Both the position numbers and the translations under genes were made by a program. The notes under the pieces were generated by a model, which was not told where the DNA came from, searched no databases, and was given only the letters and a program-made list of their open reading frames with translations. 64,000 bases of DNA from Balanoglossus misakiensis (taxonomy: Eukaryota; Animalia; Hemichordata), in NCBI GenBank assembly GCA_040954595.2, contig CM082590.2:3472001-3536000 (forward strand). Reading direction: 5' to 3'. Below, one piece after another: positions 1 through 25,883 of the stretch. Within the stretch, counting starts at the first letter, position 1; the number at the start of each line of letters is the position of its first letter.

Positions 1-625
1 CAAAATCCAATATGGCCGCCATAATCTTCGACCAATCACATTCCCCTTCGCAAACTTGATAGACATCTGTTTAATGACCACACACACCAAATCTTGTGAC
101 TCGGTTATCGCCCGTTCTTGAGAAGAAGATTTTTGAAATTTTACTAGGGTTTTTCGAAAATCCAATATGGCCGCCAAAATCTTCGACCAATCACAATGAT
201 CTTCGCAAACTTGATAGACATCAGGTAGGTGACCACATACACCAAACCCCATGTCTCGGTTATTGCCGGTTCTGGAGAAGAAGATTTTTGAAATTTAAGC
301 CAGATTTCAGAAAAAAAATTGTAGCAAAAAACTGCAACTTTGTCAGCATAATTTCCAATTACAAAAATGATGGGCAGAAGGTAGTCTACCAGCATGCCAA
401 ATTTGAAGTCGATCTGACTTGTAGTTTCTGAGATCTGAGATTTGCATTTTTTTAGAAAATCCAAGATGGCTGCCAGGTCACGTGACTAATTAAAAATTCA
501 AGGGTTCAATGCACGACTACTCATTGACCTTGACCACTGTAGCAAGTTTCAGAAGTGTACCTGCAGCGGTGTCTGAGATCTCGTGGGTCAAAGAATTGAC
601 ACAAGAATAAAGAAAGAAAGAAAGT

Positions 626-783
626 AAAATTCCAACGAAACCAATACGGGCCCAAGCCTGGCTTGGCTTGGGCCCGTAAAAACCCCAACGAAACCAATAG
701 GGCCCAAGCGCTGGTATGCGCTTGGGCCCTAAAAACCCCAACGAAACCAATAGGGCCCAAGCGCTGGCTTGCGCTTGGGCCCT
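626..783. repeat. Cluster of 3 terminal hairpin modules
   Basis: Three copies of CCAACGAAACCAATA(C)GGGCCCAAGC-loop-GCTTGGGCCC(G)TA. Confidence 0.95.
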
Positions 784-3700
784 AATTAAAGCTGCAAGCA
801 GCATTGTCCGGGCCCAAGCTCTATTATCTGATCTGATTATTAGATATGCACATAATTAATGAGTAGAAATATAATGCTGTGTTTTATCCCATGAAATATC
901 AAGGTTATATCTATGTTTGGTGTTGACATAATGTTAAGTAGGTCAAAGGTCACCAGAGGTCACCCACAATTTGGGCAGAAAATTTTGACCCATAGTGGTC
1001 CATGTCCAACAAAAACCAGACCTCTAGCCCTTTTGGTTAGCCCGGAAATAGGTATGCACATAAATAATGAGTAAAGCAGGTGTCACAGGTGACCCAAAAC
1101 TTTGGCTTTTCATTATGGCCCCATACCTCCAAACGCCAAGGCTGTATCTGCTGTGAATGTCGAGATATGCAAAAGTAGGTCAAAGGTCACCCGAGGTCAC
1201 CCAACATTTGGGCAAGAAAATTTTGACCCATAGTGGTCCATGTCCAACAAAAACCAGACCTCTAGCCATATTGGTTCGCCTGTAATTAGCTATGCACATA
1301 ATAAATGAGGTCAGCAGAGGTCACAGGTGACCCAAAACTTTGGCTTTTCAATATGGCCCCATATCTCCAAATGCCAAGGCTGTACCTGCTTTGGATGCCG
1401 AGATATGCAAAAGTAGGTCAAAGGTCACCCGAGGTCACCCAACATTTGGGCAAAATATTTTGACCCCATACTGGTCCATGTATAACAAAAACAAAACCTC
1501 TAGGTCTATTGGTTCATCTGTAATTAGGTATGCGCATATTTAATGAGGTCACCAGAGGTCAAAGGGGTCATGAAAAGTAGCAAAATTTTTTGATCACATA
1601 CAAATCCACATACATCAAAAACCAAACTTATAGCCCTATTGGTTAGCCTGGAATTAGATATGCAGAAAAATGATTCGTCAAAAGTAGGTCAAAGGTCATT
1701 GCCAAAATTACCAAAATATTTACAGCTTATTCTTGTCATATGATGATTCATATCCATATAAAGAATTTCTGTGCTATCAATTTTTAGGCTAGAAAAGGAA
1801 TTTTTACTTTTTAATCGTTTTTCACAAAATCCAATATGGCCGCCATAATCTTTGACCAATCACATTCCCCTTCGCAAACTTGATAGACATCTATTTAATG
1901 ACCACACACACCAAATCTTGTGACTCGGTTATCGCCCGTTCTGGAGAAGAAGATTTTTGAAGTTTTACTATGGTTTTTCGAAAATCCAATATGGCCGCCA
2001 TAATCTTCGACCAATCACAATGATCTTCGCAAACTTGATAGACATCAGTTAGGTGACCACATACCCCAAACGGCGTGACTCGGTTATCGCCGGTTCTGGA
2101 GAAGAAGATTTTTGAAATTTTGACCAGATTTCAGAAAAACAACTGTAGCAAAAAAACTGCAACATTGACAGCAAAATATCCAATTACAAAAATGATGGGC
2201 AGAGGGTATACTACCAGCACGCCAAATCTGAACTCGATCTGACTTGTAGTTTCTGAGATCTGAGATTTGCATTTTTTCAGAAAATCCAATATGGCCGCCA
2301 TGTCACGTGACTAATTAAGTATTCACAAGTCACTGCACATCTACTCATTGACCTTGACCACTGTAGCAAGTTTGAGAACTGTACCTGCAGCGGTGTGTGA
2401 GATCTAGAGCGCGAAAGGAGTGAACCAAGAATAAAGAAAGAAAGAAAGAAAGAAAGAAAGATTAAAGCTGCAAGCAGCATTGTCCGGGCCCAATCTCTAT
2501 TATCTGATCTGATGCTGATATAGTGTTAAGTAGGTCAAAGGTCACCCGAGGTCACCCAACATTTGGGCAAAATATTTTGACCCGATACTGGTCCATGTAT
2601 AACAAAAACAAAACCTCTAGGTCTATTGGTTCATCTGTAATTAGGTATGTGCATATTTAATGAGGTCAGCAGAGGTCAAAGGGGTCATGAAAAGTAGCAA
2701 AAATATTTGATCACATACAAATCCACATACATCAAAAACCATAATGATAGCCTTAAAGGTTAGCCTGGAATTAGATATGCAGAAAAATGATGCGTCAAAA
2801 GTAGGTCAAAGGTCATTGCCAAAATTACCAAAATATTTATAGCTTATTCTTGGCATATGATGATTCATATCCATAAAAACAATTTCTGTGCTATCAATTT
2901 TTAGGCTAGAAAAAGAATTTTTACTTTTTAATCGTTTTTCACAAAATCCAATATGGCCGCCATAATCTTCGACCAATCACATTCATCTTCGCAAACTTGA
3001 TAGACATCTGTTTAATGACCACACACACCAAATCTTGTGACTCAGTTATCGCCGGTTCTTGAGAAGAAGATTTTTGAAATTTTACTAAGGTTTTTCGAAA
3101 ATCCAATATGGCCGCCATAATCTTCGACCAATCACAATGATCTTCGCAAACTTGATTGACCTCAGTTTGGTGACCACATATCTCAAACCGCGTGACTCGG
3201 TTATCGCCAGTTCTGGAGAAGAAGATTTTTGAAATTTTGACCAGATTTCAGAAAAACAACTGTAGCAAAAAAACTGCAACATTGACAGCAAAATATCCAA
3301 TTACAAAAATGATGGGTAGAAGGTAGACTACCTGCACACCAAATTTGAAGTCGATCTGACTTGTAGTTTCTGAGATCTGAGATTTGCATTTTTTCAGAAA
3401 ATCCAAGATGGCCGCCAGGTCACGTGACTAATTAAAAATTCAAGGGTTCAATGCACGACTACTCATTGACCTTGACCACTGTAGCAAGTTTGAGAAGTGT
3501 ACCTGCAGCAGTGTCTGAGATCTAGAGCGACAAAGAATTGACACAAGAATAAAGAAAGAATTAAAGCTGCAAGCAGCATTGTCCGGGCCCAAGCTCTATT
3601 ATCTGATCTGATTATTAGATATGCACATAATTAATGAGTAGAAACATAATGCTGTGTTTTATCCCATGAAATATCAAGTTTATATCTATGTTTGGTGTTG

Positions 3701-4991
3701 ATATAGTGTTAAGTAGGTCAAAGGTCACCCAGAGGTCACCCACAATTTGGGCAGAAAATTTTGACCCATAGTGGTCCATGTTCAACAAAAACCAGATCTC
3801 TAGCCCTTTTGGTTAGCCCGTAATTAGGTATGCACATAAATAATGAGTTAAGCAGGTGTCACAGGTGACCAAAAACTTTGGCTTTTCATTATGGCCCCAT
3901 ACCTCCAAACGCCAAGGCTGTATCTGCTGTGGATGTCAAGATATGGAAAAGTAGGTCAAAGGTCACCCGAGGTCACCCAACATTTGGGCAAAATATTTTG
4001 ACCCCATAGTGGTCCATGTATAACAAAAACAAAATCTCTAGGTCTATTGGTTCATCTGTAATTAGGTATGTGCATATTTAATGAGGTCAGCAGATGTCAA
4101 AGGGGTCATGAAAAGTATCAAAATTTTTTGATCACATACAAATCCACATACATCAAAAACCAAACTTATAGCCCTATTGGTTAGCCTGGAATTAGATATG
4201 CAGAAAAAGGATGCGTCAAAAGTAGGTCAAAGGTCATTGTCAAAATTACCAAAATATTTATAGCTTATTCTTGTCATATGATGATTCATATCCTTAAAAA
4301 GAATTTATGTGCTATCAATTTTTAGGCCAGAAAGGGAATTTTTACTTTTTAATGGTTTTTCACAAAATCCAATATGGCCGCCATAATCTTCGACCAATCA
4401 CATTCTTCTTAGCAAACTTGATAGACATCTTTTTAATGACCACACACACCAAATCTTGTGACTCGGTTATCGCCGGTTCTTGAGAAGAAGATTTTTGAAA
4501 TTTTACTAGGGTTTTTCGAAAATCCAATATGGCCGCCATAATCTTCGACCAATCACAATGATCTTCGCAAACTTGATAGACATCAGTTAGGTGACCACAT
4601 ACACCAAACCCTGTGTCTCGGTTATCACCGGTTCTGGAGAAGAAGATTTTTGAAATTTAAGCCAGATTTCAGAAAAAAAATTGTAGCAAAAAACTGCAAC
4701 TTTGTCAGCATAATTTCCAATTACAAAAATGATGGGCAGAAGGTAGTCTACCAGCATGCCAAATTTGAAGTCGATCTGACTTGTAGTTTCTGAGATCTGA
4801 GATTTGCATTTTTTCAGAAAATCCAAGATGGCCGCCAGGTCACGTGACTAATTAAAAATTCAAGGGTTCAATGCACGACTACTCATTGACCTTGACCACT
4901 GTAGCAAGTTTCAGAAGTGTACCTGCAGCGGTGTCTGAGATCTCGTGGGTCAAAGAATTGACACAAGAATAAAGAAAGAAAGAAAGAAAGT

Positions 4992-5043
4992 AAAATTCCA
5001 ACGAAACCAATACGGGCCCAAGCCTGGCTTGGCTTGGGCCCGT
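4992..5043. repeat. Single terminal hairpin module
   Basis: CGGGCCCAAGCCTGGCTTGGCTTGGGCCCG within a (GAAA)n tract. Confidence 0.95.
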
Positions 5044-7898
5044 AAAGAAAGAAAGAAAGAAGAATTAAAGCTGCAAGCAGCATTGTCCGGGCCCAAGCTC
5101 TATTATCTGATCTGATTATTAGATATGCACATAATCAATGAGTAGAAACATAATGCTGTGTTTTATCCCATGAAATATCAAGGTTATATCTGTTTGGTGC
5201 TGATATAGTGTTAAGTAGGTCAAAGGTCACCCAGGGGTCACCCACAATTTTGGCAGAACATTTTGACCCATAGTGGTCCATGTATAACAAAAACAAAACC
5301 TCTAGCCCTTTTGGTTAGCCCAGAATTAGGTATGCACATAAATAATGAGTCAAGCAGGTGTCACAGGTCACCCAAAACTTTGTCTTTTCCGTATGGCCCC
5401 ATACATGTACCTCCAAACGCCAAGGCTGTATCTGCTGTGGATGTCGAGATATGCAAAAGTAGGTCAAAGGTCATCCGAGGTCACCCAACATTTGGGCAAA
5501 ATATTTTGACCCCATACTGGTCCATGTATAACAAAAACAAAACCTCTAGGTCTATTGGTTCATCATTAATTAGGTATGCGCATATTTAATGAGGTCACCA
5601 GAGGTCAAAGGGGTCATGAAAAGTAGCAAAATTTTTTGATCACATACAAATCCACATACATCAAAAACCAAACTTATAGCCCTATTGGTTAGCCTGGAAT
5701 TAGATATGCAGAAAAATGATGCGTCAAAAGTAGGTCAAAGGTCATTGCCAAAATTACCAAAATATTTATAGCTTATTCTTGTCATATGATGATTCATACC
5801 CATTAAAAGAATTTCTGTGCTATCAATTTTTAGGCTAGAAAAGGAATTTTTACTTTTTAATTGTTTTTCACAAAATCCAATATGGCCGCCATAATCTTCG
5901 ACCAATCACATTCCCCTTCGCAAACTTGATAGACATCTGTTTAATGACCACACACACCAAATCTTGTGACTCGGTTATCGCCCGTTCTTGAGAAGAAGAT
6001 TTTTGAAGTTTTACTATGGTTTTTCGAAAATCCAATATGGCCGCCATAATCTTCGACCAATCACAATGATCTTCGCAAACTTGATAGACATCAGTTAGGT
6101 GACAACATACCTCAAACCGCGTGACTCAGTTATCACCGGTTCTGGAGAAGAAGATTTTTGAAATTTAAGCCAGATTTCAGAAAAAAAATTGTAGCAAAAA
6201 AACTGCAACATGTACAGCAAAATATCCAATTACAAAAATGATGGGTAGAAGGTAGACTACCTGCACACCAAATTTGAAGTCGATCTGACTTGTAGTTTCT
6301 GAGATCTGAGATTTGCATTTTTTCAGAAAATCCAATATGGCCGCCAGGTCACGTGACTAATTAAAAATTCAAGGGTTCAATGCACGACTACTCATTGACC
6401 TTGACCACTGTAGCAAGTTTCAGAAGTGTACTTGCACCGGTGTCTGAGATCTAGAGCGACAAAGAATTGACAGAAGAATAAAGAAAGAATTAAAGCTGCA
6501 AGCAGCATTGTCGGGCCCAAGCGCTGATCTTGAATTATATATGCACAGTATGAATGAGAAGAAACATAATTTTGTATCGGGTGTATTATCTCATGACATA
6601 ACAAGGGCGTATGTATTTTTGCTGCTGAAATAGGGTAAAGTAGGTCAAAGGTCACCTGAGGTCATCCAACATTTGGGCAAAAAATTTTGACCCATGCTGG
6701 GCCATGTCCAACAAAAACCAAAACTCTAGCTCTATTGGTTCGCATGTAATTAGGTATGTGCATATTTAATGAGGTCTGCAGGTGTCACAGGTGAGCCAAA
6801 AATTTGGCTTTACATTTAGGTCCCATCCTGCCAAATGCCAAGGCTGTATCTGCTCTGGATGTTGAGATATGCGAAAGTAGGTCAAAGGTCACCAGAGGTC
6901 ACCCAACATTTAGGCAAAAAAATTTGATCCCATACAGGTCCATGTCCAACAAAAACCAAACCTCTAGCTCTATTGGTTCGCCTGTAATTAGCTATGCACA
7001 TAATTAATGAGGTAAGCAGAGGTCAAAGGGGTCATGGAAAGTAGCAAAATATTTTGATCACACACTTATCCACATGCATCAAAAACCAAACATCTAGCCC
7101 TATAGGTTAGCCTGGAATTAGATATGCAGAAATAATAACATATGAAAAGTAGGTCAAAGGTCATGTGAAAAATCGCCAAAAATTTGTAACATATTTTAGT
7201 CACATGACGATCGATATCCATACAAAGAATTTCTATGCTATCAATGTTTAGAGTAGAAAAAGGAATTTCAATTTTTCAATGCTTTTTACAAAATCCAATA
7301 TGGCCGCCATAATCTTCGACCAATCACAATGTTCTTTGCAAACTTGATAGACATCAGTGTAGTGACCATACTCCCCGAATCTTGTGACTCAGTTATCGCC
7401 CGTTCTGGAGAAGAAGATTTGGGGAGTTTTACTATGGTTTTTCGAAAATCCAATATGGCCGCCATAATCTTTGACCAATCACAATGATCTTCGCAAACTT
7501 GATAGACCTCAATTAGGTGACCCCATACCCCAAACCGCGTGACTCTGTTATCGCCGGTTCTGGAGAAGAAGATTTTTGAAATTTTGACCAGATTTCAGAA
7601 AAACAACTGTAGCAAAAAAACTGCAACATTGACAGCAAAATATCCAATTACAAAAATGATGGGCAGAAGGTACACTACCAGCACGCCAAATCTGAAGTAA
7701 ATCTGACTTGTAGTTTCTGAGATCTGAGATTTGCATTTTTTCAGAAAATCCAATATGGCCGCCATGTCACGTGACTAATTAAAAATTCATGGGTTCAATG
7801 CACGACTACTCATTGACCTTGACCACTGTAGCAAGTTTGAGAACTGTACCTGCAGCGGTGTCTGAGATCTAGAGCGATAAAAAATGGACAGGAGAATA

Positions 7899-7931
<33 letters not shown>

Positions 7932-10711
7932 TAAAGCTGCAAGCAGCATTGTCCGGGCCCAAGCTCTATTATCTGGTCTGATTATTAGAAATGCACATAA
8001 TTAATGAGTAGAAACATAATGCTGTGTTTTATCCCATGAAATATCAAGGTTATATCTATGTTTGGTGTTGATATAGTGTTAAGTAGGTCAAAGGTCACCC
8101 AGAGGTCACCCACAATTTGGGCAGAAAATTTTGACCCATAGTGGTCCATGTCCAACAAAAACCAGACCTCTAGCCCTTTTGGTTAGCCCGGAATTAGGTA
8201 TGCAGATAAATAATGCGTAAAGCAGGTGTCACAGATGACCCAAAACTTTGGCTTTTCATTATGGCCCCATACCTCCAAATGTCAAGGCTGTACCTGCTTT
8301 GGATGCCGAGATATGCAAAAGTAGGTCAAAGGTCATCTGAGGTCATCCAAAATTTGGGCAGAAAATTTTGACTCATAGTGGTCCATGTCCAACAAAAACC
8401 AGACCTCTAGCCCTTTTGGTTAGCCCGGAATTAGGTATGCACATAAATAGTGAGTAAAGCAGGCGTCACAGGTGACCCAAAACTTTGGCTTTTCATTATG
8501 GCCCCATACCTCCAAATGCCAAGGCTGTGCCTGCTTTGGATGCTGAGATATGCAAAAGTAGGTCAAAGGTCATCTGAGGTCATCCAAAATTTGGGCAAAA
8601 AATTTTGACCCCATACTGGTCCATGTCCAACAAAAACCAAACCTCTAGCTCAATTGGTTCGCCTGTAATTAGCTATGCACATAATTAATGAGGTCAGCAG
8701 AGGTCAAAGGGGTCATGAAAAGTAGCAAAATATTTTGATCACACACTAATCCACATTCATCAAAAACCAAACGTCTAGCCCTACAGGTTAGCCTGGAATT
8801 AGATATGCAGAAATAATAACGTGTGATAAGTAGGTCAAAGGTCATGTGAAAAATCGCCAAAAATTTGTAACATATTGTAGTCATATGACGATTGATATCC
8901 ATAAAAAGAATTTGTATGCTATTAATTTTTATACTAGAAAAAGGAATTTTAATTTTTCACTGCTTTTTACAAAATCCAATATGGCCGCCATAATCTTCGA
9001 CCAATCACATTCCTCTTCCCAAACTTGATAGACATCTGTTTAATGAACACACACACCAAATCTTGCGACTCGGTTATCGCCGGTTCTTGAGAAGAAGATT
9101 TTTGAAATTTTACTAGGGTTTTTCGAAAATCCAATATGGCCGCCATAATCTTCGACCAATCACAATGATCTTCGCAAACTTGATAGACATCAGTTAGGTG
9201 ACCACATACCCCAAACCCCGTGTCTCGGTTATCACCGGTTCTGGAGAAGAAGATTTTTGAAATTTAAGCCAGATTTCAGAAAAAAAAATTGTAGCAAAAA
9301 AACTGCAACTTTGTCAGCATAATTTCCAATTACAAAAATGATTGACAGAAGGTAGTCTACCTGCACGCCAAATTTGAAGTTGATCTGACTTGTAGTTTCT
9401 GAGATCTGAGATTTGCATTTTTTCAGAAAATCCAAGATGGCCGCCAGGTCATGTGACTAATTAAAAATTCATGGGTTCAATGCACGACTACTCATTGACC
9501 TTGACCACTGTAGCAAGTTTGAGAACTGTACCTGCAGTGGTGTCTGAGATCTAGAGCGACAAAGAATTGACAGAAGAATAAAGAAAGAAGAAGGAAAGAC
9601 AGATTAAAGCTGCAAGCAGCATTGTCCGGGCCCAAGCTCTATTATCTGATCTGATGCTGATATAGTGTTAAGTAGGTCAAAGGTCACCCGAGGTCACCAA
9701 ACATTTGGGCAAAATATTTTGACCCGATACTGGTCCATGTATAACAAAAACAAAACCTCTAGGTCTATTGGTTCATCTGTAATTAGGTATGTGCATATTT
9801 AATGAGGTCAGCAGAGGTCAAAGGGGTCATGAAAAGTAGCAAAAATTTTTGATCACATACAAATCCACATACATCAAAAACCAAAATGATAGCCTTAAAG
9901 GTTAGCCTGGAATTAGATATGCAGAAAAATGATGCATCAAAAGTAGGTCAAAGGTCATTGCCAAAATTACCAAAATATTTATAGCTTATTCTTGGCATAT
10001 GATGATTCATATCCATAAAAAGAATTTCTGTGCTATCAATTTTTAGGCTAGAAAGGGAATTTTTACTTTTTAATCGTTTTTCACAAAATCCAATATGGCC
10101 GCCATAATCTTCGACCAATCACATTCCCCTTCGCAAACTTGATAGACATCTGTTTAATGACCACACACACCAAATCTTGTGACTCAGTTATTGCCGGTTC
10201 TTGAGAAGAAGATTTTTGAAATTTTACTAGGGTTTTTCGAAAATCCAATATGGCCGCCATAATCTTCGACCAATCACAATGATCTTCGCAAACTTGATAG
10301 ACCTCAGTTTGGTGACCACATACCCCAAACCGCGTGACTCGGTTATCGCCGGTTCTGGAGAAGAAGATTTTTGAAATTTTGACCAGATTTCAGAAAAACA
10401 ACTGTAGCAAAAAAACTGCAACATTGACAGCATAATTTCCAATTACAAAAATGTTTGACAGAAGGTGGTCTACCTGCACGCCAAATTTGAAGTCAATCTG
10501 ACTTGTAGTTTCTGAGATCTGAGATTTGCATTTTTTCAGAAAATCCAAGATGGCCGCCAGGTCATGTGACTAATTAAAAATTCATGGGTTCAATGCACGA
10601 CTACTCATTGACCTTGACCACTGTAGCAAGTTTGAGAACTGTACCTGCAGTGGTGTCTGAGATCTAGAGCGACAAAGAAATGACACAAGAATAAAGAAAG
10701 AAAGAAGAAAG

Positions 10712-10949
10712 AAAAACCCCAACGAAACCAATAGGGCCCAAGCGCTGGTATGCGCTTGGGCCCTAAAAAACCCCAACGAAACCAATAGGGCCCAAGCGCT
10801 GGCTTGCGCTTGGGCCCTAAAAAACCCCAACGAAACCAATAGGGCCCAAGCGCTTGCTTGCGCTTGGGCCCTAAAGAAAGAAAGAAGGAAAGACAGAAAA
10901 ACCCCAACGAAACCAATAGGGCCCAAGCGCTGGCTTGCGCTTGGGCCCT
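10712..10949. repeat. Cluster of 4 terminal hairpin modules
   Basis: Hairpins at 10734, 10788, 10842 and 10919. Confidence 0.95.
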
Positions 10950-13900
10950 AATTAAAGCTGCAAGCAGCATTGTCCGGGCCCAAGCTGTATTATCTGATCA
11001 GATTATTAGATATGCACATAATTAATGAGTAGAAACATAATGCTGTGTTTTATCCCATGAAATATCAAGGTTATATCTATGTTTGGTGTTGATATAGTGT
11101 TAAGTAGGTCAAAGGTCACCCAGAGGTCACCCACAATTTGGGCAGAAAATTTTGACCCATAGTGGTCCATGTCCAACAAAAACCAGACCTCTATCCCTTT
11201 TGGTTAGCCCGGAATTAGGTATGCACATAAATAATGAGTTAAGCAGGTGTCACAGGTGACCCAAAACTTTGGCTTTTCATTATGGCCCCATACCTCCAAA
11301 CGCCAAGGCTGTATCTGCTGTGGATGTCGAGATATGCAAAAGTAGGTCAAAGGTCATCCGAGGTCACCCAACATTTGGGCAAAAAATTTGACCCAATACT
11401 GGTTCATGTCCAACAAAAACCAAACCTCTAGGTCTATTGGTTCATCTGTAATTAGGTATGCGCATATTTAATGAGGTCAGCAGAGGTCAAAGGGGTCATG
11501 AAAAGTAGCGAAATTTGTTGATCGCATACAAATCCACATACATCAAAAACCAAACTTATAGCCCTATTGGTTAGCCTGGAATTAGATATGCAGAAAAATG
11601 ATGCGTCAAAAAGTAGGTCAAAGGTCATTGCCAAAATTACCAAAATATTTATAGCTTATTCTTGGCATATGATGATTCATATCCATAAAAAGAATTTCTG
11701 TGCTATCAATTTTTAGGCTAGAAAGGGAATTTTTACTTTTTAATCGTTTTTCACAAAATCCAATATGGCCGCCATAATCTTCGACCAATCACATTCATCT
11801 TCGCAAACTTGATAGACATCTGTTTAATGACCACACACACCAAATCTTGTGACTCAGTTATCGCCGGTTCTTGAGAAGAAGATTTTTGAAATTTTACTAG
11901 GGTTTTTCGAAAATCCAATATGGCCGCCAAAATCTTCGACCAATCACAATGATCTTCGCAAACTTGATAGACCTCAGTTTGGTGACCACATACCCCAAAC
12001 CGCGTGACTCGGTTATCGCCGGTTCTGGAGAAGAAGATTTTTGAAATTTTGACCAGATTTCAGAAAAACAACTGTAGCAAAAAAACTGCAACATTGACAG
12101 CATAATTTCCAATTACAAAAATGTTTGCCAGAAGGTAGTCTACCTGCACGCCAAATTTGAAGTCGATCTGACTTGTAGTTTCTGAGATCTGAGATTTGCA
12201 TTTTTTCAGAAAATCCAAGATGGCCGCCAGGTCATGTGACTAATTAAAAATTCATGGGTTCAATGCACGACTACTCATTGACCTTGACCACTGTAGCAAG
12301 TTTGAGAACTGTACCTGCAGTGGTGTCTGAGATCTAGAGCGACAAAGAAATGACAGAAGAATAAAGAAAGAAGAAAGAAAGAAAGACAGAATTAAAGCTG
12401 CAAGCAGCATTGTCCGGGCCCAAGCTCTATTATCTGATCAGATTATTAGATATGCACATAATTAATGAGTAGAAACATAATGCTGTGTTTTATCCCATGA
12501 AATATCAAGGTTATATCTATGTTTGGTGTTGATATAGTGTTAAGTAGGTCAAAGGTCACCCAGAGGTCACCCACAATTTGGGCCGAAAATTTTGATCCAT
12601 AGTGGTCCATGTCCAACAAAAACCAGACCTGTAGCCCTTTTGGTTAGCCCGGAATTAGGTATGCACATAAATAATGAGTTAAGCAGGTGTCAAAGGTGAC
12701 CCAAAACTTTGGCTTTTCATTATGGCCCCATACCTCCAAACGCCAAGGTTGTATCTGCTGTGGATGTCGAGATATGCAAAAGTAGGTCAAAGGTCACCCG
12801 AGGTCACCCAACATTTGGGCAAAATATCTTGACCCCATACTGGTCCATGTATAACAAAAACAAAACCTCTAGGTCTATTGGTTCATCATTAATTAGGTAT
12901 GCGCATATTTAATGAGGTCACCAGAGGTCAAAGGGGTCATGAAAAGTAGCAACATTTTTTGATCACATACAAATCCACATACATCAAAAACCAAACTTAT
13001 AGCCCTATTGGTAAGCCTGGAATTAGATATGCAGAAAAATGATGCGTCAAAAGTAGGTCAAAGGTCATTGCCAAAATTACCAAAATATTTATAGCTTATT
13101 CTTGTCATATGATGATTCATATCCATAAAAAGAATTTCTGTGCTATCAATTTTTAGGCTAGAAAAGGAATTTTTACTTTTTAATCGTTTTTCACAAAATC
13201 CAATATGGCCGCCATAATCTTCAACCAATCACATTCCCCTTCGCAAACTTGATAGACACCTGTTTAATGACCACACACACCAAATCTTGTGACTCGGTTA
13301 TCGCCCGTTCTTGAGAAGAAGATTTTTGAAGTTTTACTATGGTTTTTCGAAAATCCAATATGGCCGCCATAATCTTCGACCAATCACAATGATCTTCGCA
13401 AACTTGATAGACATCAGTTAGGTGACCACATACCCCAAACCGCGTGACTCAGTTATCACCGGTTCTGGAGAAGAAGATTTTTGAAATTTAAGCCAAATTT
13501 CAGAAAAAAAATTGTAGCAAAAAAACTGCAACATTTACAGCAAAATATCCAATTACAAAAATGATGGGTAGAAGGTAGACTACCTGTACACCAAATTTGA
13601 AGTCGATCTGACTTGTAGTTTCTGAGATCTGAGATTTGCATTTTTTCAGAAAATCCAATATGGCCGCCAGGTCACGTGACTAATTAAAAATTCACAGGTT
13701 CAATGCACGACTACTCATTGACCTTGACCACTGTAGTAAGTTTCAGAAGTGTACCTGCTGCGGTGTCTGAGATCTAGAGCGACAAATAATTGACACAAGA
13801 ATAAAGAAAGAAAGAAAGAAAGATTAAAGCTGCAAGCAGCATTGTCCGGGCCCAAGCTCTATTATCTGATCTGATTATTAGATATGCACATAATTAATGA

Positions 13901-15254
13901 GTAGAAACATAATGCAGTGTTTTATCCCATGAAATATCAAGGTTATATCTATGTTTGGTGCTGATATAGTGGTAAGTAGGTCAAAGGTCACCCAGGGGTC
14001 ACCCACAATTTGGGCAGAATATTTTGACCCATAGTGGTCAATGTCCAACAAAAACCAGACCTCTAGCCCTTTTGGTTAACCCGGAATTAGGTATTCACAT
14101 AAATAATGCGTAAAGCAGGTGTCACAGGTGACCCCACAACTTTGGCTTTTCATTATGGCCCCATACCTCCAAACGCCAAGGTTGTACCTGCTTTGGATGC
14201 TGAGATATGCAAAAGTAGGTCAAAGGTCATCTGAGGTCACCCAAAATTTGGGTAGAAAATTTTGACCCATAGTGGTCCATGTATAACAAAAACAAAACCT
14301 CTAGGTCTATTGGTTCATCTGTAATTAGGTATGCGCATATTTAATGAGGTCAGCAGAGGTCAAAGGGGTCATGAAAAGTAGCAAAAATTTTTGATCACAT
14401 ACAAAACCAAATACATCAAAAACCAAACTTATAGCCCTATTGGTTAGCCTGGAATTAGATATGCAGAAAAATGATGCGTCAAAAGTAGGTCAAAGGTCAT
14501 TGCCAAAATTACCAAAATATTTATAGCTTATTCTTGTCATATGATGATTCATATCCATAAAAAGAATTTCTGTGCTATCAATTTTTAGGCTAGAAACGGA
14601 ATTTTTACTTTTTAATCGTTGTTCACAAAATCCAATATGGCCGCCAAAATCTTCGACCAATCACAATGATCTTCGCAAACTTGATAGACATCAGTGTAGT
14701 GACCATACTCCCCAAATCTTGTGACTCGGTTATCGCTGGTTCTTGAGAAGAAGATTTTTGAAACTTTACTAGGGTTTTTCGAAAATCCAATATGGCCGCC
14801 ATAATCTTCGACCAATCACAATGATCTTCGCAAACTTGATAGACCTCAGTTTGGTGACCACATACCCCAAACCCAGTGTCTCGGTTATCACCGGTTCTGG
14901 AGAAGAAGATTTTTGAAATTTAAGCCAGATTTCAGAAAAAAAATTGTAGCAAAAAAACTGCAACTTTTTCAGCATAATTTCCAATTACAAAAATTATAAG
15001 CAGAAGGTAGTCTACCTGCACGCCAAATTTGAAGTCGATCTGACTTGTAGTTTCTGAGATCTGAGATTTGCATATTTTCAGAAAATCCAAGATGGCTGCC
15101 AGGTCATGTGACTAATTAGAAATTCAAGGGTTCAATGCACGACTACTCATTGACCTTGACCACTGTAGCAAGTTTCAGAAGTGTACCTGCAGTGGTGTCT
15201 GAGATCTAGAGCGACAAAGAATTGACACAAGAATAAAGAAAGAAGAAAGAAAGA

Positions 15255-16420
15255 ATATAGCTGCAAGCAGCGATGACGGGCCCAAGCTTAAGCCGAAGGT
15301 CAAAGGTCATAAGTGGTCACCCAAAATTTGGGCAAGAAATTTTGACCCCATACTGGTCCGTGTCCCACAAGAACAAAATCTCTAGCCCTATTGGTTCGCC
15401 TACAATTAGGTATGTGCATAATTAATGAGGTAAAGTGTAAGGCTCCATCAGGAGTTCCATCCCTCCAAATGCCAAGGCTGTAGCTGCTGTGCATGCCGAG
15501 ATATGGTAAAGTAGGTCAAAGGTCACCTGAGGTCACCCAAAATTTGGGCAAGAAATTTTGACCCCATACTGGTTCATGTTCAGCAATAACCAAACCTCTA
15601 GTCCTATTGGTTGGCCTGGAATTAGGTATGCACATAATTAATGAGATAAGCAGGTGTCACAGGTGACCCTCAATTTTGGCTTTTAAATTTTAGTCCCAAC
15701 CCTCCAAACGCCAAGTCTGTACCTGCTCTGGATGCCGAGATATAGGAAAGTAGGTCAAAGGTCACCTGAGGTCACCCAAAATTTGGGCAATTTTTTTTTA
15801 CCCTTTACTGGTCCATGTCCCACAAGCACAAAACCTCTAGCCCTATTAGTTAGCCCAGAATTAGGTATGCACATAATTAATGAGTTAAGCAGGTGTTACA
15901 GGTGAGCCCAAAATTTTGCCTTTTATTTTGGTCCCATTCTGCTCACGGGGCAATAGAGAGTCACAGTACAGGACCATTGCACAGATGTGGACATAGCATC
16001 ATAGCTTAACTATAGAAAGTATAGGCCTATGGCTGGGTCCAAAAAATATGAAATATAATATTTAAAAATCTTCTTCTCAAAATTGACTTGGCCCAGAGCC
16101 TTGAAATTTAGCATGTAGGACACTGACCATATGGTCCGCAAAATGATTGCACAGAATTTTGATATCATCATTCATATGCAAATTAGGCCCATTTGAAAAC
16201 TTTGCCCATATATGGTCATCAGGTCATGTGACTAATTACACATTCACGAGGGTACTGCACGAGCTCTCATAGACCTGCACCATTGTGCCAAGTTTGAGAT
16301 TTGTAGGTTCAGCCGTTTTCAAGATCTACCTGAGCAAAAAAACTACACAAGAAAAAAAAAAAAAAGATGAAAAACCCCAGTAATACCAATAGGGCACAAG
16401 CCTGCTTGGCTTGTGCCCTA
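15255..16420 (-). mobile_element. Divergent subfamily copy of the HINE-like element with its own divergent end
   Basis: Starts ATATAGCTGCAAGCAGCGATGACGGGCCCAAGC, has a distinct second half, and is followed directly by the variant hairpin GGGCACAAGC...GCTTGTGCCC at 16392. Confidence 0.8.
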
Positions 16421-16698
16421 AAAAACCCCAACGAAACCAATAGGGCCCAAGCGCTGGCTTGCGCTTGGGCCCTAAAGAAAGAAAAACCCCAACGAAACCA
16501 ATAGGGCCCAAGCGCTGGTATGCGCTTGGGCCCTAAAAACCCCAACGAAACCAATAGGGCCCAAGCGCTGGTATGCGCTTGGGCCCTAAAGAAAAACCCC
16601 AACGAAACCAATAGGGCCCAAGCGCTGGTATGCGCTTGGGCCCTAAAAAACCCCAACGAAACCAATACGGGCCCAAGCCTGGCTTGGCTTGGGCCCGT
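16370..16698. repeat. Cluster of 6 terminal hairpin modules
   Basis: Hairpins at 16392, 16443, 16504, 16557, 16614 and 16669. Confidence 0.95.
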
Positions 16699-19600
16699 AA
16701 TTAAAGCTGCAAGCAGCATTGTCCGGGCCCAAGCTCTATTATCTGATCTGATGCTGATATAGTGTTAAGTAGGTCAAAGGTCACCTGAGGTCACCCAACA
16801 TTTGGGCAAAATATTTTGACCTCATACTGGTCCATGTATAACAAAAACAAAACCTCTAGGTCTATTGGTTCATCTGTAATTAGGTATGTGCATATTTAAT
16901 GAGGTCAGCAGAGGTCAAAGGGGTCATGAAAAGTAGCGAAATTTTTTGATCACATACAAATCCACATACATCAAAAACCAAAACGATAGCCTTAAAGGTT
17001 AGCCTGGAATTAGATATGCAGAAAAATGATGCGTCAAAAGTAGGTCAAAGGTCATTGCCAAAATTACCAAAATATTTATAGCTTATTCTTGGCATATGAT
17101 GATTCATATCCATAAAAAGAATTTCTGTGCTATCAATTTTTAGGCTAGAAAGGTAATTTTTACTTTTTAATCGTTTTTCACAAAATCCAATATAGCCGCC
17201 ATAATCTTTGACCAATCACATTCCCCTTCGCAAACTTGTTAGACATCTGTTTAATAACCACACACACCAAATCTTGTGACTCGGTTATCGCCGGTTCTTG
17301 AGAAGAAGATTTTTGATATTTTACTAGGGTTTTTCGAAAATCCAATATGGCCGCCGTAATCTTCGAACAATCACAATGATCTTCGCAAACTTGATAGACA
17401 TCAGTTAGGTGACCACATACCAAAAACCCCGTGTCTCGGTTATCACCGGTTCTGGAGAAGAAGATTTTTGAAATTTAAGCCAGATTTTAGGAAAAAAATT
17501 CTAGCAAAAAAACTGCAACATTGACAGCAAAATTTCCAATTACAAAAATGATGGGTAGTAGGTAGTCTACCTGCACGCCAAATTTGAAGTCGATCTGACT
17601 TGTAGTTTCTGAGATCTGAGATTTGCATTTTTTCAGAAAATCCAATATGGCCACCAGGTCACGTGACTAATTAAAAATTCATGGGTTCAATGCACGACTA
17701 CTCATTGACCTTGACCACTGTAGCAAGTTTGAAAACTGTACCTGCAGTGGTGTCTGAGATCTAGAGCGACAAAGAATTGACATAAGAATAAAGAAAGAAT
17801 TAAAGCTGCAAGCAGCATTGTCCGGGCCCAAGCTCTATTATCTGATCTGATGCTGATATAGTGTTAAGTAGATCAAAGGTCACCCGAGGTCACCCAACAT
17901 TTAGGCAAAATATTTTGACCCCATACTGGTCCATGTATAACAAAAACAAAACCTCTAGGTCTACTGGTTCATCATTAATTAGGTATGTGCATATTTAATG
18001 AGGTCAGCAGGGGTCAAAGGGGTCACAAAAAGTAGCAAAATATTTTGATCACACACTAATCCACATACATCAAAAACCAAACTTATAGCCCTATTGGTTA
18101 GCCTGGAATTAGATATGCAGAAAAATGATGTGTCAAAAGTAGGTCAAAGGTCATTGCCAAAATTACCAAAATATTTATAGCATATTCTTGTCATATGATG
18201 ATTCATATCCATAAAAAGAATTTCTGTGCTATCAATTTTTAGGCTAGAAAGGGAATTTTTACTTTTTAATCGTTTTTCACAAAATCCAATATGGCCGCCA
18301 TAATCTTCGACCAATCACATTCCTCTTCGCAAACTTGATAGATATCTGTTTAATGACCACACACACCAAATCTTGTGACTCGGTTATCGCCGGTTCTTGA
18401 GAAGAAGATTTTTGAAATTTTACTAAGGTTTTACGAAAATCCAATATGGCCGCCATAATCTTCGACCAATCACAAAGATCTTCGCAAACTTGATAGACAT
18501 CAGATAGGTGACTACATACCCCAAACCCCGTGTCTCGGTTATCACCAGTTCTAGAGAAGAAGATTTTTGAAATTTAAGCCGGATTTCAGAAAAAAAATTG
18601 TAGCAAAAAAACTGCAACATTGACAGCAAAATATCCAATTACAAAAATGATGGGTAGAAGGTAGACTACCTGCACACCAAATTTGAAGTCGATCTGACTT
18701 GTAGTTTCTGAGATCTAAGATTTGCATTTTTTCAGAAAATCCAATATGGCCGCCAGGTCACGTGACCAATTAAAAATTCAAGGGTTCAATGCACATCTAC
18801 TCATTGACCTTGACCACTGTAGCAAGTTTCAGAAGTGTACCTGCAGCGGTGTCTGAGATCTAGAGCGACAAAGAATTGACACAAGAAAAAAGAAAGAAAG
18901 AAAGAAAGAAAGACAGAATTAAAGCTGCAAGCAGCATTGTCCGGGCCCAAGCTCTATTATCTGATCTGATGCTGATATAGTGTTAAGTAGGTCAAAGGTC
19001 ACCCGAGGTCACCAAACATTTGGGCAAAATATTTTGACCCCATACTTGTCCATGTATAACAAAAACAAAACCTCTAGGTCTATTGGTTCATCTGTAATTA
19101 GGTATGTGCATATTTAATGAGGTCAGCAGAGGTCAAAGGGGTCATGAAAAGTAGCAAAATTTTTTGATCGCATACGAATCCACATACATCAAAAACCGAA
19201 ATGATAGCCTTAAAGGTTAGCCTGGAATTATATATGCAGAAAAATGATGCGTCAAAAGTAGGTCAAAGGTCATTGCCAAAATTACCAAAATATTTATAGC
19301 TTATTCTTGGCATATGATGATTCATATCCATAAAAAGAATTTCTGTGCTATCAATTTTTAGGCTAGAAAGGGAATTTTTACTTTTTAATCGTTTTTCACA
19401 AAATCCAATATGGCCGCCAAAATCTTCGACCAATCACAATGATCTTAGCAAACTTGATAGACATCAGTGTAGTGACCATACTCCCCAAATCTTGTGACTT
19501 GGTTATCGCTGGTTCTTGAGAAGAAGATTTTTGAAATTTTACTAGGGTTTTTCGAAAATCCAATATGGCCGCCATAATCTTCGACCAATCACAATGATCT

Positions 19601-20045
19601 TCGCAAACTTGATAGACATCTGTTAGGTGACCACATACCCCAAACGGCGTGACTCGGTTATCGCCGGTTCTGGAGAAGAAGATTTTTGAAATTTAAGCCA
19701 GATTTCAGAAAAAAAATTGTAGCAAAAAAACTGCAACATTGTCAGCATAATTTCCAATTACAAAAATGATAGGCTGAAGGTAGTCTACCAGCATGCCAAA
19801 TTTGAAGTTGATCTGACTTGTAGTTTCTGAGATCTGAGATTTGCTTTTTTTTAGAAAATCCAAGATGGCCGCCAGGTCACGTGACTAATTAAAAATTCAC
19901 AGGTTCAATGCACGACTACTCATTGACCTTGACCACTGTAGCAAGTTTCAGAAGTGTACCTGCAGCGGTGTCTGAGATCTAGAGCGACAAAGAATTGACA
20001 CAAGAATAAAGAAAGAAAGAAGAAAGAAGAAAGAAGGAAAGACAG

Positions 20046-20151
20046 AAAAACCCCAACGAAACCAATAGGGCCCAAGCGCTGGTATGCGCTTGGGCCCTAA
20101 AAACCCCAACGAAACCAATAGGGCCCAAGCGCTGGCTTGCGCTTGGGCCCT
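20046..20151. repeat. Cluster of 2 terminal hairpin modules
   Basis: Hairpins at 20068 and 20121. Confidence 0.95.
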
Positions 20152-23100
20152 AATTAAAGCTGCAAGCAGCATTGTCCGGGCCCAAGCTCTATTATCTGAT
20201 CTGATTATTAGATATGCACATAATTAATGAGTAGAAACATAATGCAGTGTTTTATCCCATGAAATATCAAGGTTATATCTATGTTTGGTGCTGATATAGT
20301 GTTAAGTAGGTCAAAGGTCACCCAGGGGTCACCCACAATTTGGGCAGAATATTTTGACCCATAGTGGTCAATGTCCAACAAAAACCAGACCTCTAGCCCT
20401 TTTGGTTAACCCGGAATTAGGTATGCACATAAATAATGCGTAAAGCAGGTGTCACAGGTGACCCCACAACTTTGGCTTTTCATTATGGCCCAATACCTCC
20501 AAACGCCAAGGTTGTACCTGCTTTGGATGCTGAGATATGCAAAAGTAGGTCAAAGGTCACCTGAGGTCACCCAACATTTGGGCAAAATATTTTGACCCCA
20601 TACTGGTCCATGTATAACAAAAACAAAACCTCTAGGTCTATTGGTTCATCTGTAATTAGGTATGTACATATTTAATGAGGTCAGCAGAGGTCAAAGGGGT
20701 CATGAAAAGTAGCAAAATTTTTGGATCACATACAAATCGACATACATCAAAAACCAAACTTATAGCCCTATTGGTTAGCCTGGAATTAGATATGCAGAAA
20801 AATCATGCATCAAAAGTAGGTCAAAGGTCATTGCCAAAATTACCAAAATATTTATAGCTTATTCTTGTCATATGATGATTCATATCCATAAAAAGAATTT
20901 CTGTGCTATCAATTTTTAGGCTAGAAAGGGAATTTTTACTTTTTAATCGTTTTTCACAAAATCCAATATGGCCGCCATAATCTTCGACCAATCACATTCC
21001 TCTTCGCAAACTTGATAGACATCTGTTTAGTGACCACACACACCAAATCTTGTGACTCGGTTATCGCCGGTTCTTGAGAAGAAGATTTTTGAAATTTTAC
21101 TAGGGTTTTTCGAAAATCCAATATTGCCGCCATAATCTTCAACCAATCACAATGATCTTCGCAAACTTGATAGACATCAGTTAGGTGACCACATACCCCA
21201 AACCGCGTGACTCGGTTATCACCGGTTCTGGAGAAGAAGATTTTTGAAATTTAAGCCAGATTTCAGAAAAAAAATTGTAGCAAAAAAACTGCAACATTGA
21301 CAGCATAATTTCCAATTACAAAAATGATGGGTAGAAGGTAAACTACCTGCACACCAAATTTGAAGTCGATCTGACTTGTAGTTTCTGAGATCTGAGATTT
21401 GCATTTTTTCAGAATATCCAATATGGCCGCCAGGTCACGTGACTAATTAAAAATTCAAGGGTTCAATGCACGACTACTCATTGACCTTGACCACTGTAGC
21501 AAGTTTCAGAAGTGTACCTGCAGCGGTGTCTGAGATCTAGAGCGACAAAGAATTGACACAAGAATAAAGAAAGATTAAAGCTGCGAGCAGCATTGTCGGG
21601 CCCAAGCGCTGATCTTGAATTATATATGCACAGTATGAATGAGAAGAAACAGAATTGTTTATCGTATGTATTATCTCATGACATAATAAGGATGTGTGTG
21701 TTTTTGCTGCTGAAATAGGGTGAAGTAGGTCAAAGGTCACCTGAGGTCACCCAACATTTGGGCAATTTTTTTTTAACCCATACTGGTCCATGTCCAACAA
21801 AAAACAAAACTCTAGCTCTATTGGTTCGCCTGTAATTAGGTATGTGCATATTTAATGAGGTCAGCAGGTGTCACAGGTGACTCAAAAATGTGGCTTTACA
21901 TTTTGGTCCCATCCTACCAAATGCCATGGCTGTATCTGCTCTGGATGCTGAGATATGCGAAAGTAGGTCAAAGGTCACCAGAGGTCACGCAACATTTGGG
22001 CAAAAAATTCTGATCCCATACTGGTCTGTGTCCAACAAAAACCAAACCTCTAGCTCTATTGGTTCGCCTGTAATTAGATATGCACATAATTAATGAGGTC
22101 AGCAGAGGTCAAAGGGGTCATGAAAAGTAGCAAAATATTTTGATCACACACTAATCCACATTCATCAAAAACCAAACGTCTAGCCCTATAGGTTAGCCTG
22201 GAATTAGATATGCAGAAATAATAACGCGTGATAAGTAGGTCAAAGGTCATGTGAAAAATCGCCAAAAAATTGTAACATAGTTTAGTCACATGACGATTGA
22301 TATCCATCAAAAGAATTTGTATGCTATCAATTTTTAGACTAGAAAAAGGAATTTCAATTTTTCACTGCTTTTTACAAAATCCAATATGGCCGCCATAATC
22401 TTCGACCAATCACAATGTTCTTTGCAAACTTGATAGACATCAGTGTAGTGACCATACTCCCCGAATCTTGTGACTCAGTTATCGCCTGTTCTGGAGAAGA
22501 AGATTTTGGGAGTTTTACTATGGTTTTTCGGAAATCCAATATGGCCGCCATAATCTTCGACCAATCACAATGATCTTCGCAAACTTGATAGACCTCAGTT
22601 AGGTGACCCCATACCCCAAACCGCGTGACTCCGTTATCGCCGGTTCTGGAGAAGAAGATTTTTGAAATTTTGACCAGATTTCAGAAAAACAACTGTAGCA
22701 AAAAAACTGCAACATTGACAGCAAAATATCCAATTACAAAAATGATGGGCAGAAGGTACACTACCAGCACGCCAAATCTGAAGTAAATCTGACTTGTAGT
22801 TTCTGAGATCTGAGATTTGCATTTTTTCAGAAAATCCAATATGGCCGCCATGTCACGTGACTAATTAAAAATTCATGGGTTCAATGCACGACTACTCATT
22901 GACCTTGACCACTGTAGCAAGTTTGAGAACTGTACCTGCAGCGGTGTCTGAGATCTAGAGCGATAAAAAATGGACAGGAGAATAAAGAAAGAAAGAAAGA
23001 ATTAAAGCTGCAAGCAGCATTGTCCGGGCCCAAGCTCTATTATCTGATCTGATTATTAGATATGCACATAATTAATGAGTAGAAACATAATGCTGTGTTT

Positions 23101-24446
23101 TATCCCATGAAATATCAAGGTTATATCTATGTTTGGTGTTGATATAGTGTTAAGCAGGTCAAAGGTCACCCAGAGGTCACCCACAATTTGGGCAGAAAAT
23201 TTTGACCCATAGTGGTCCATGTCCAACAAAAACCAAAACTCTAGCTTTATTGGTTTGCGTGTAATTAGGTATGTGCATATTTAATGAGGTCAGCAGGTGT
23301 CACTGGTGTCCCAAAAATTTGGCTTTTCATTATGGCCCCATACCTCAAAACGCCAAGGCTGTATCTGCTTTGGATACCGAGAAATGCGAAAGTAGGTCAA
23401 AGGTCACCTGAGGTCACCCAAAATTTTGGGCAAATTATTTTGACCCAATACTGATCAATGTCCAAAAAAAGACCAAAACTCTAGGTCTATTGGTTCATCT
23501 GTAATTAGGTATGCGCATATTTAATGAGGTCAGCAGAGGTCAAAGGGGTCATGAAAAGTAGCAATATTTTTTGATCACATACAAATCCACATACAACAAA
23601 AACCAAACTTATAGCCCTATTGGTTAGCCTGGAATTAGATATGCAGAAAATTGATGCGTCAAAAGTAGGTCAAAGGTCATTGCCAAAATTACCAAAATAT
23701 TTATAGCTTATTCTTGTTATATGATGATTCATATCCATAAAAAGAATTTCTGTGCTATCAATTTTTAGGCTAGAAAGGGAATTTTTACTTTTTAATCGTT
23801 TTTCACAAAATCCAATATGGCCGCCATAATCTTCGACCAATCACATTCCTCTTCGCAAACTTGATAGACATCTGTTGAATGACCACACACACAAAATCTT
23901 GTGATTCGGTTAGCGCCGGTTCTCGAGAAGAAGATTTTTGAAATTTTACTAGGGTTTTTCGAAAATCCAATATGGCCGCCATAATCTTCGACCAATCACA
24001 ATGATCTTCGCAAACTTGATAGACATCAGTTAGGTGACCACATACCCCAAACCCCGTGTCTCGGTTATCACCGGTTCTGGAGAAGAAGATTTTTGAAATT
24101 TAAGCCAGATTTCAGAAAAAAAATTGTAGCAAAAAAACTGCAACTTTGTCAGCATAATTTCCAATTACAAAAATGATTGACAGAAGGTAGTCTACCTGCA
24201 CGCCAAATTTGAAGTCGATCTGACTTGTAGTTTCTGAGATCTGAGATTTGCATTTTTTCAGAAAATCCAATATGGCCGCCAGGTCACGTGACTAATTAAA
24301 AATTCATGGGTTCAATGCACGACTACTCATTGACCTTGACCACTGTAGCAAGTTTGAAAACTGTACCTGCAGTGGTGTCTGAGATCTAGAGCGACAAAGA
24401 ATTGACATAAGAATAAAGAAAGAAAGAAAGAAAGAAAGAAAGACTG

Positions 24447-25324
24447 AAAAATACCAACGAAACCAATAGGGCCCAAGCCTGGCTTGGCTTGGGCCCTAAA
24501 AAACCCCAACGAAACCAATAGGGCCCAAGCGCTTGCTTGCGCTTGGGCCCTAAAGAAAGAAAAACCCCAACGAAACCAATAGGGCCCAAGCGCTGGTATG
24601 CGCTTGGGCCCTAAAGAAAGAAAGACTGAAAAATACCAACGAAACCAATAGGGCCCAAGCCAAGCCAGGCTTGGGCCCTATTGGTTTCGTTGGTATTTTT
24701 CAGTCAAACCAGGCTTGGGCCCTAAAGAAGAAAGAAAAACCCAACGAAACCAATAGGGCCCAAGCGCTGGCTTGCGCTTGGGCCCTAAAGAAAAACCCCA
24801 ACGAAACCAATAGGGCCCAAGCGCTGGTATGCGCTTGGGCCCTAAAAAATTCCAACGAAACCAATACGGGCCCAAGCCTGGCTTGGCTTGGGCCCGTAAA
24901 AACCCCAACGAAACCAATAGGGCCCAAGCGCTGGCTTGCGCTTGGGCCCTAAGAAGGAAAGAAAGAAAGACTGAAAAACCCCAACGAAACCAATACGGGC
25001 CCAAGCCTGGCTTGGCCCAAGCGCTTGTTTGCGCTTGGGCCCTAAAAATTCCAATGAAACCAATAGGGCCCAAGCGCTTGCTTGCGCTTGGGCCCTAAAA
25101 AAACCCAACGAAACCAATAGGGCCCAAGCGCTTGCTTGCGCTTGGGCCCTAAAAAACCCCCAACGAAACCAATAGGGCCCAAGCGCTGGTATGCGCTTGG
25201 GCCCTAAAAAAACCCAACGAAACCAATACGGGCCCAAGCCTGGCTTGGCTTGGGCCCGTAATAATAATAAAGAAAAATTCCAACAATACCAATAGGGGCA
25301 CAAGCCCGATAGGCTTGTGCCCCT
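24447..25324. repeat. Terminal stack of ~14 hairpin modules closing the array
   Basis: Hairpins at 24469, 24521, 24582, 24651 (rearranged), 24756, 24813, 24868, 24920, 24997 (fused double), 25066, 25120, 25175, 25230 and 25295 (divergent, preceded by (AAT)n). Confidence 0.95.
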
Positions 25325-25547
25325 AGATACACACCACTTCGCAAAGCAATCTGACCAGTAGTTCTTGAGTTACTGAGTTTTGACCAAATTCACATTTTTC
25401 CAGCTAATTTGCATATTTTTTGCAATGACAACTTCGTTTGAACAAACTCCCATCTACAGCCCAGCCTGCATCTGCACACCAAATATTGAGGTGATACGCG
25501 CAGCGGTTTTCAAGTGTTTGATGTGGACATACATACACACACACACA

Positions 25548-25615
<68 letters not shown>

Positions 25616-25722
25616 TACATACATACATACATACATACATACATACATACATACATACATACATACATACATACGCAACCGATCCCATAAGGTCCCCTGG
25701 TACATACCAATGGGACCTAATA
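25325..25722. mobile_element. End of a second, older HINE/pearl-like family, with (CA)n(TACA)n microsatellite and terminal hairpin
   Basis: Microsatellite ~25528-25673, hairpin AGGTCCC...GGGACCT ~25690-25718; 25365-25530 is homologous to 63410-63550. Confidence 0.7.
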
Positions 25723-25784: not shown

Positions 25785-25883
25785 CCTATCCTTAGCATTG
25801 ACGTCAGCTCCATGGTCAATCAACACTTGTGCCGCTTCCAGTTTATTTTCGTCGGCCAATGCATGCAATGCTGTGGATTCAGA
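25785..25883 (-). CDS. Ankyrin-repeat gene, coding exon 3 (SESTALHALADENKLEAAQVLIDHGADVNAKDR)
   Basis: 99 bp, phase 0-0, cag acceptor and gtaagt donor; ankyrin consensus TALH...LI.HGADVNAKD. Confidence 0.9.

Follow-up and report, generated by a model that had tools for sequence, protein, structure and literature searches.

Non-autonomous elements of the HINE/DINE-1 and HLE2 type share a characteristic layout, which has been set out for DINE-1/HINE (PMC4067079), for the oyster element Cg_HINE (PMC7492417) and for HLE2 (PMC11417382) and which, in the available portions of these accounts, agrees with that of the repeat unit described here. In Fusarium the Helitron2 element FoHeli is described, in the accessible part of the report, as inserting into itself near 5' ends and as carrying multiple 5' termini (Chellapan et al. 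2016, PMC5148889), and shuffled loci are described from oyster (PMC12628747, in excerpt). Here we describe an array of such elements in a stretch of 64,000 nucleotides from the hemichordate Balanoglossus misakiensis (GenBank assembly GCA_040954595.2, contig CM082590.2, positions 3,472,001 to 3,536,000 of the forward strand), referred to below as the window. The unit is a non-autonomous element of Helentron type (HINE/HLE2), and the array is most probably a nest built by many separate insertions, each at a TT step within or adjoining the head module (5' hairpin and TTTC tract) of an earlier copy. It is an unusually deep and legible variant of known behaviour, since self-insertion near 5' ends has already been proposed in print.

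Structure of the array

Parsing of positions 1-25325 identified 30 hairpin ends and, besides 17 whole bodies, a partial one at 1-612; the copies number at least 18 and share a single orientation on the minus strand. The whole bodies start at 786, 2462, 3561, 5065, 6490, 7931, 9604, 10952, 12392, 13824, 15256, 16701, 17800, 18919, 20154, 21575 and 23002; they are 1092-1653 bp long and none is interrupted internally, while the hairpin ends lie in clusters of 3, 1, 4, 6, 2 and 14. An earlier note, drawn up from the letters of this DNA, had recognised these bodies and clusters and had counted bodies as opening and hairpin ends as closing brackets, finding a return from 785 to exactly zero at 16698. 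Both the array and the count are borne out: a last-in-first-out stack parse closes 786-16700 exactly (11 bodies, 11 ends) and also a second block, 16701-24725 (6 bodies, 6 ends). Twelve hairpin ends, at 685, at 738 and ten at 24741-25280, are left without a partner. The features of the array are as follows, with head types (P, Q, R, S, T and D) labelled by a naming of our own.

1..25325, minus strand: nested array, composed of a single non-autonomous Helentron (HINE/HLE2-type) family together with two divergent relatives and extending to the left of the window
1..679, minus strand: partial intact copy (B0) with an S-type head, its 3' part lying left of the window
680..785, minus strand: two unpaired 5' heads of types P and Q, with bodies predicted left of the window
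786..16700, minus strand: first closed block, formed by the long copy 786 with its S head and 10 copies inside it, to depth 5
2462..16646, minus strand: copy 2462 (short, P head), host of copies 3561, 5065 and 10952
3561..5045, minus strand: intact copy 3561, the reference for anatomy
5065..10951, minus strand: chain in which 5065 (Q) holds 6490 (R, to 10874), which holds 7931 (Q, to 10820), which holds 9604 (P, intact, to 10766)
10952..16589, minus strand: chain in which 10952 (P) holds 12392 (P, to 16536), which holds 13824 (Q, to 16475), which holds 15256
16701..24725, minus strand: second closed block, that of the short copy 16701 with its T head, which abuts the head of 786
24620..24725, minus strand: head of type T in which an inverted duplication folds back on itself (perfect stem of 38 bp, loop flipped)
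24726..25325, minus strand: ten unpaired outer heads

Copy 10952 abuts the head of 5065, and the innermost member of its chain, 15256, is an intact divergent relative that extends to 16421. Copy 16701 contains two chains, one in which 17800 (Q) holds 18919 (P, intact) and one in which 20154 (P) holds 21575 (R) and this in turn holds 23002 (T, intact).

Several heads have unusual structures of their own. The fold-back duplication at 24620-24725 folds at -50.5 kcal/mol and likely arose by a template switch at the hairpin. The head at 24981 (24981-25045) consists of two heads of unlike type joined through their common stem sequence, a fusion that is likely the product of a deletion, and the outermost head, at 25280, belongs to a divergent family with an AAT-type tract. 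We also observed a 192-bp exact match between 678-869 and 20046-20237, covering two heads and the start of the abutting body, which represents either gene conversion or chance among common types.

Anatomy and classification of the unit

Read on the minus strand, the unit begins with TT and a hairpin with a 14-bp stem, the left arm of which is a subterminal inverted repeat (subTIR) of 10-12 bp; this is followed by the TTTC tract, a conserved core, internal repeat units of 155 bp and 237-239 bp, the 3' subTIR and a short 3' stem-loop. The subTIRs measure 10-12 bp in 15 of the 17 copies, the exceptions being one mutated copy with 8 bp and the divergent copy, which has a mismatch; their distance from the terminus is 3 nt on the 5' side and 23-24 nt on the 3' side. 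Those of 10 bp are at the low edge of the published range of 11-16 bp. An inverted repeat is present beside the 5' subTIR, with stems of 13-14 bp in five folded heads, and the 5' hairpin has a fold energy of -18.8 to -18.9 kcal/mol in three heads of the main family. A palindrome lies a few nucleotides from the 3' end, where the last 41 nt fold weakly (-3.0 kcal/mol). The order of subTIR, inverted repeat and tract matches the published HINE/HLE2 layout, and the piled hairpins, which had been taken for the terminal ends of the bodies, are therefore 5' heads. The core may also resemble the DINE-1 core.

The copies insert between two Ts without target duplication: a T adjoins the 3' end in 17/17 copies and the 5' end in 14/17, the remaining three abutting a later copy, and 11 of 13 excision scars give a run length known from uninterrupted tracts. 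Coding capacity is absent, the longest Met-initiated open reading frame of any body being 85 aa, and no frame for a RepHel protein with an endonuclease was found among the window's 20 open reading frames of at least 120 aa, three of which, together with one exon, were scanned against Pfam. A canonical Helitron (HLE1; 5'-TC and 3'-CTRR ends, insertion between A and T) was considered and rejected, since the ends here are TTA... and ...TTAA and carry subTIRs.

Pairing of bodies and heads

Exact balance is suggestive by itself but is not proof, and as such it was dismissed, because a random order of 11 opening and 11 closing brackets stays non-negative with a probability of 1/12; the earlier argument from balance carries little weight alone. 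The weight of the evidence lies in the repair of insertion scars and in the linkage between heads and bodies. Excision of the inner copies in silico, a check that the earlier note had proposed, restored complete heads with rejoined tracts in 12/12 interrupted hosts. The last A-run is five nucleotides long in 11/11 uninterrupted heads, and 10 of the 12 heads obtained by rejoining conform to this five-A grammar and count as well formed (p=0.04). Linkage of head type to body, tested with the divergent copy excluded, is significant on its own (p=0.0009-0.019 across 8 window sizes), and when the right halves were shuffled 50,000 times, no shuffle attained the well-formed heads together with the observed linkage. 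Rejoining also brings back, in three P-type hosts, an AAG interruption close to the head; the intact copy 9604 has it too.

Subtype matches that had been reported from the bracket count also hold. The head with the TTGCTT loop closes both variant bodies (6490 and 21575), the divergent head closes the divergent body at 15256, and three of the four short CCTTAAAGG bodies pair with the TGGTAT loop; the same loop closes three mid-length bodies as well, so it is not a marker of short bodies. Pairing of the body at 16701 had been called imperfect and proves to be sound: over the last 120 columns of the alignment it matches the intact copy 23002 exactly, and the two share a rare type of closing head, in the case of 16701 across 7 kb.

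Target site and topology of the nest

All 17 insertions lie in or at a head module and none in a body. The nested copies are in the host head module in 15/15 cases, and the two top-level copies abut a head. This is despite 509 A/T-rich steps in bodies (420 on the same strand and 89 on the opposite strand) versus 215 in modules, a distribution with a probability of about 1e-8. Thirteen of the 15 nested copies are inserted 53-77 nt from the host terminus and the other two at 111 nt, in a host with a duplicated head. The run on the hairpin side holds 7/13 scars where 3.3 are expected (p=0.025), and 4/17 copies sit exactly at the terminus of an earlier copy, giving four head-to-tail junctions. Only 5/17 copies are uninterrupted, compared with 8.5 expected under uniform attachment (p=0.004; p=0.0003-0.003 when targets are weighted), and the nest is thus more chain-like than random attachment predicts. 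From these observations we infer that the preferred site is an intact tract-hairpin junction that is spoiled by use.

The nesting could be real and yet the hairpin be irrelevant, with any T-rich pyrimidine or TTTC tract serving as target and the chain shape a matter of chance or of later tract growth. HINEs favour T-rich sites (PMC4067079) and head-to-tail dimers can arise by double insertion at a regenerated site (PMC5932611), in the available parts of both sources, and here a T-run lies 5' of every junction. We nevertheless consider this doubtful, as the long tracts of 7-8 units that remain next to bodies 786 and 6490 have received no further insertion and runs of 6-8 A within bodies are unused, and as such a target leaves the deficit of uninterrupted copies and the hairpin-side bias unaccounted for.

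If every outer head owns a body upstream, the nest is about 15 levels deep, a depth that random trees with up to 120 copies attain in fewer than 0.1% of cases. The twelve upstream bodies are an upper bound, however, because Helitron2 composites with several 5' ends have been described (PMC5148889, available text). Part of the outer pile may accordingly consist of such composites, formed by a nick at the outermost head and a stop at the first 3' end, or of locally duplicated heads, with fewer than 12 bodies upstream; this mode is compatible with a nest of separate insertions. Besides the Fusarium precedent, it would explain the three consecutive R-type loops at 24981-25151, although R closes only 2/18 paired copies, and the one fused head. 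Against this, the exact balance of the two closed blocks shows that no surplus heads entered them, and the outer heads differ from their neighbours; we regard a composite origin of part of the pile as rather unlikely.

Divergence between copies

Divergence among the copies is 3-14%. Adjacent bodies differ by a mean of 8.05% (minimum 4.0), non-adjacent bodies by 7.88% (minimum 2.9) and host-guest pairs by 8.2%, and the longest exact repeat within the 25 kb is 369 bp. Neighbours are thus no more alike than other copies, which argues against misassembly, concatemers and unequal crossover, and the pattern fits independent insertions from a diverse pool. Two specific routes were rejected on these figures: a rolling-circle concatemer array would require near-identical neighbours, and adjacent copies are at least 4.0% apart; local hopping from host to guest is at odds with pairs 8.2% apart. 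Local hopping is likewise absent in Helraiser, in the available part of that report (PMC4778049).

Growth from a small nest by unequal crossover, by insertion of rolling-circle concatemers or by homologous integration of circles could account for the four head-to-tail junctions, which resemble circle junctions, and would suit the mosaic character of the bodies; Helitron tandem arrays with several 5' ends are moreover known (PMC12628747, in the portion available). As an origin of the array it is improbable, given that adjacent and host-guest pairs are as divergent as the rest and that both the body/head balance and the matching across kilobases would be lost, though homologous integration of circles may have produced the four head-to-tail junctions. 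The suggestion in the earlier note that the locus did not originate through concatemers or unequal crossover is supported. It is more improbable still that the array, which is known from the assembly alone, is an assembly artefact of a high-copy repeat: the exact repeats are short, even the closest bodies differ by 2.9%, and balanced, type-matched nesting is no product of an assembler.

Related elements in other contigs

Exact head and junction patterns gave no match in metagenome contigs, viral contigs or prokaryote genomes. A looser contig scan found at least 117 loci; among the matches listed, 27 have the same 3' terminus and 90 are chance or non-family matches. The 27 loci lie in AT-rich contigs that are animal-like in appearance and perhaps fish-like. 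One of them (L027) is a full solo copy of the related family. In another, L018 (590-735), from another animal, a pair of stacked heads with AAT tracts is succeeded by a body in head-to-tail arrangement; L018 and L063, which also has a head-to-tail joint, are the 2 of the 27 related loci with such a junction among the matches listed. Two loci, L042 and L101, are located in AAT tracts; L042 has two copies, the second of which is not clearly within the tract of the first.

Surroundings of the array

Within the window, no further copy of the array family was found in 25326-64000. The features immediately beyond the outermost head are as follows.

25326..25720, minus strand: fragment of a second HINE-like family, with hairpin end, CATA/CA tract and core
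25785..25883, minus strand: 99-bp ankyrin-repeat exon with AG/GT splice signals

The second-family fragment is abutted by the outermost head, and part of it recurs at 63364-63545 (71%); the join lacks the usual terminal AA, perhaps through a deletion. The array is likely to be intronic, judging from its position behind the GT donor of the ankyrin exon.

Elsewhere in the window, an intron-less reading frame of 1081 aa (55721-58966, minus strand) encodes an LRR-Roc-COR (Roco) protein, for which the four best matches are in the hemichordates Ptychodera, Glandiceps and Saccoglossus (46-55% identity). A direct duplication of 3.5 kb (94%; 39872-43368 and 44496-47987) represents an AT-rich element with nested internal inverted repeats, and further inverted arms lie around it at 38875-39198 and 48114-48433. 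A 1.3-kb stretch with long imperfect inverted arms (28177-29456) resembles a miniature inverted-repeat transposable element (MITE), and short tandem arrays are found at 33100-33616 (130-bp units) and 43549-43894 (126-bp units).

A model for growth of the nest

Growth by separate insertions draws on the anatomy of the unit, the TT junctions, the clean repair on excision, the placement in head modules and the chain-like topology, all observed directly, and the excision, linkage and target tests together support the earlier proposal that new copies land at TT in the TTTC tract of a resident copy. Mutation is also heavier in the outer heads, of which 6/9 are unique variants, compared with 3/19 of the inner ones (p=0.013, two divergent heads omitted), and head-to-tail junctions recur in the related family. 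In this model copies would be produced elsewhere in the genome by a RepHel transposase acting in trans and would arrive singly. The preferred target would be the T-run at which an intact tract and hairpin meet, where single-stranded DNA or bound transposase would be on hand; HUH transposases cut single-stranded DNA (PMC4778049, in the part available), and either the hairpin or the tract may expose it at this site. Insertion would separate the tract from the hairpin and so ruin the site, while the newcomer would supply an intact one, with the consequence that the nest would mostly grow as a stack. The newcomer's terminal TT would remake a weaker site, which could give rise to the four head-to-tail junctions. 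A further reading is more tentative: it is possible, though we would not presume it, that this HLE2 lineage bears its own single-use landing pad, with a transposase attracted to the place where tract and 5' hairpin meet and with each insertion consuming one pad and bringing another.

A number of observations weigh against growth by separate insertions at heads. Head/body linkage becomes marginal once the two R-type bodies are removed (p=0.04-0.14). The A-run phase test gives 11/13 (p=0.15) under a loose rule and reaches p=0.016 only with a stricter rule chosen after inspection of the data, and two rejoined heads have one surplus A. Private mutations of the bodies show no age gradient, the host proving the older member in 8/14 pairs (rho -0.14, p=0.61), and the gradient in the heads is partly one of homopolymer length differences. 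The bodies are mosaic, with nearest neighbours that shift along their length, which indicates that the family is recombinant and that recombination has also acted. No autonomous partner, solo copy or empty site was seen within the window. Among the matches listed in the contig scan, 23 of the 27 related loci are flanked by other A-rich sequence, which means that the related family does not target itself exclusively.

Both halves of each host remain in place, and the locus provides base-level target data and an order of insertion for Helentron/HLE2 transposases; the nest is also the intermediate that has so far only been inferred for Helitron2 elements with several 5' ends. It represents a third route, beside concatemers and unequal crossover, to long satellite-like blocks, and repeat annotation would label such loci as truncated bodies and a 53-bp satellite. 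A single-use landing pad, if it exists, would be a self-renewing safe haven, with a stack of about 15 layers that serves as a log of the order of subfamily activity, and, given the termini and junctions common to unrelated animal contigs, it would amount to a general rule for a widespread family.

Comparison with known systems

A lepidopteran Helitron-like element reportedly disrupts (GAAA)n, to go by the title of a study by Coates et al. from 2010, and the tract sequence is the same as here. The unit is like HINE/DINE-1 elements (PMC4067079, PMC7492417 and PMC11417382, as far as the available excerpts extend) in having a 5' subTIR with an inverted repeat, a tetranucleotide tract, central tandem repeats, a 3' subTIR with a stem-loop, no coding capacity and insertion between two Ts without target duplication. 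These accounts describe tandem arrays, clustering and shuffled loci and do not, in those excerpts, mention the deep, ordered nesting in the unit's own tract that is seen here. Self-nesting does not appear in the available parts of PMC3630058, PMC12001565, PMC9075770 and PMC4344730, and we found no description of a deep, ordered HINE nest in the open literature, although subscription papers and supplements, including the table of FoHeli multiple termini, may bear on novelty.

Arrays that arise by repeated independent insertion at a preferred site are formed by SaTar Mutator-like elements (PMC5907723), which like the unit here are small and non-autonomous, and by the self-inserting rice MITEs Castaway and Gaijin (PMC5172404). 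In the accessible text of these reports both kinds move by cut-and-paste with target duplications, and the SaTar arrays are stated to be non-nested. In the available part of its description FoHeli inserts into itself close to the 5' end, with repeated pieces of 31-85 nt compared with 53-77 nt here, and it likewise has stacked 5' termini and insertion beside the 5' end of another copy. The FoHeli nest was inferred from composites and isolated cases, whereas the Balanoglossus array has 17 insertions in place with both halves of the host. Unlike FoHeli, it has five observed levels of nesting, or up to about 15 if the outer heads have bodies, and its nesting order is legible and open to test.

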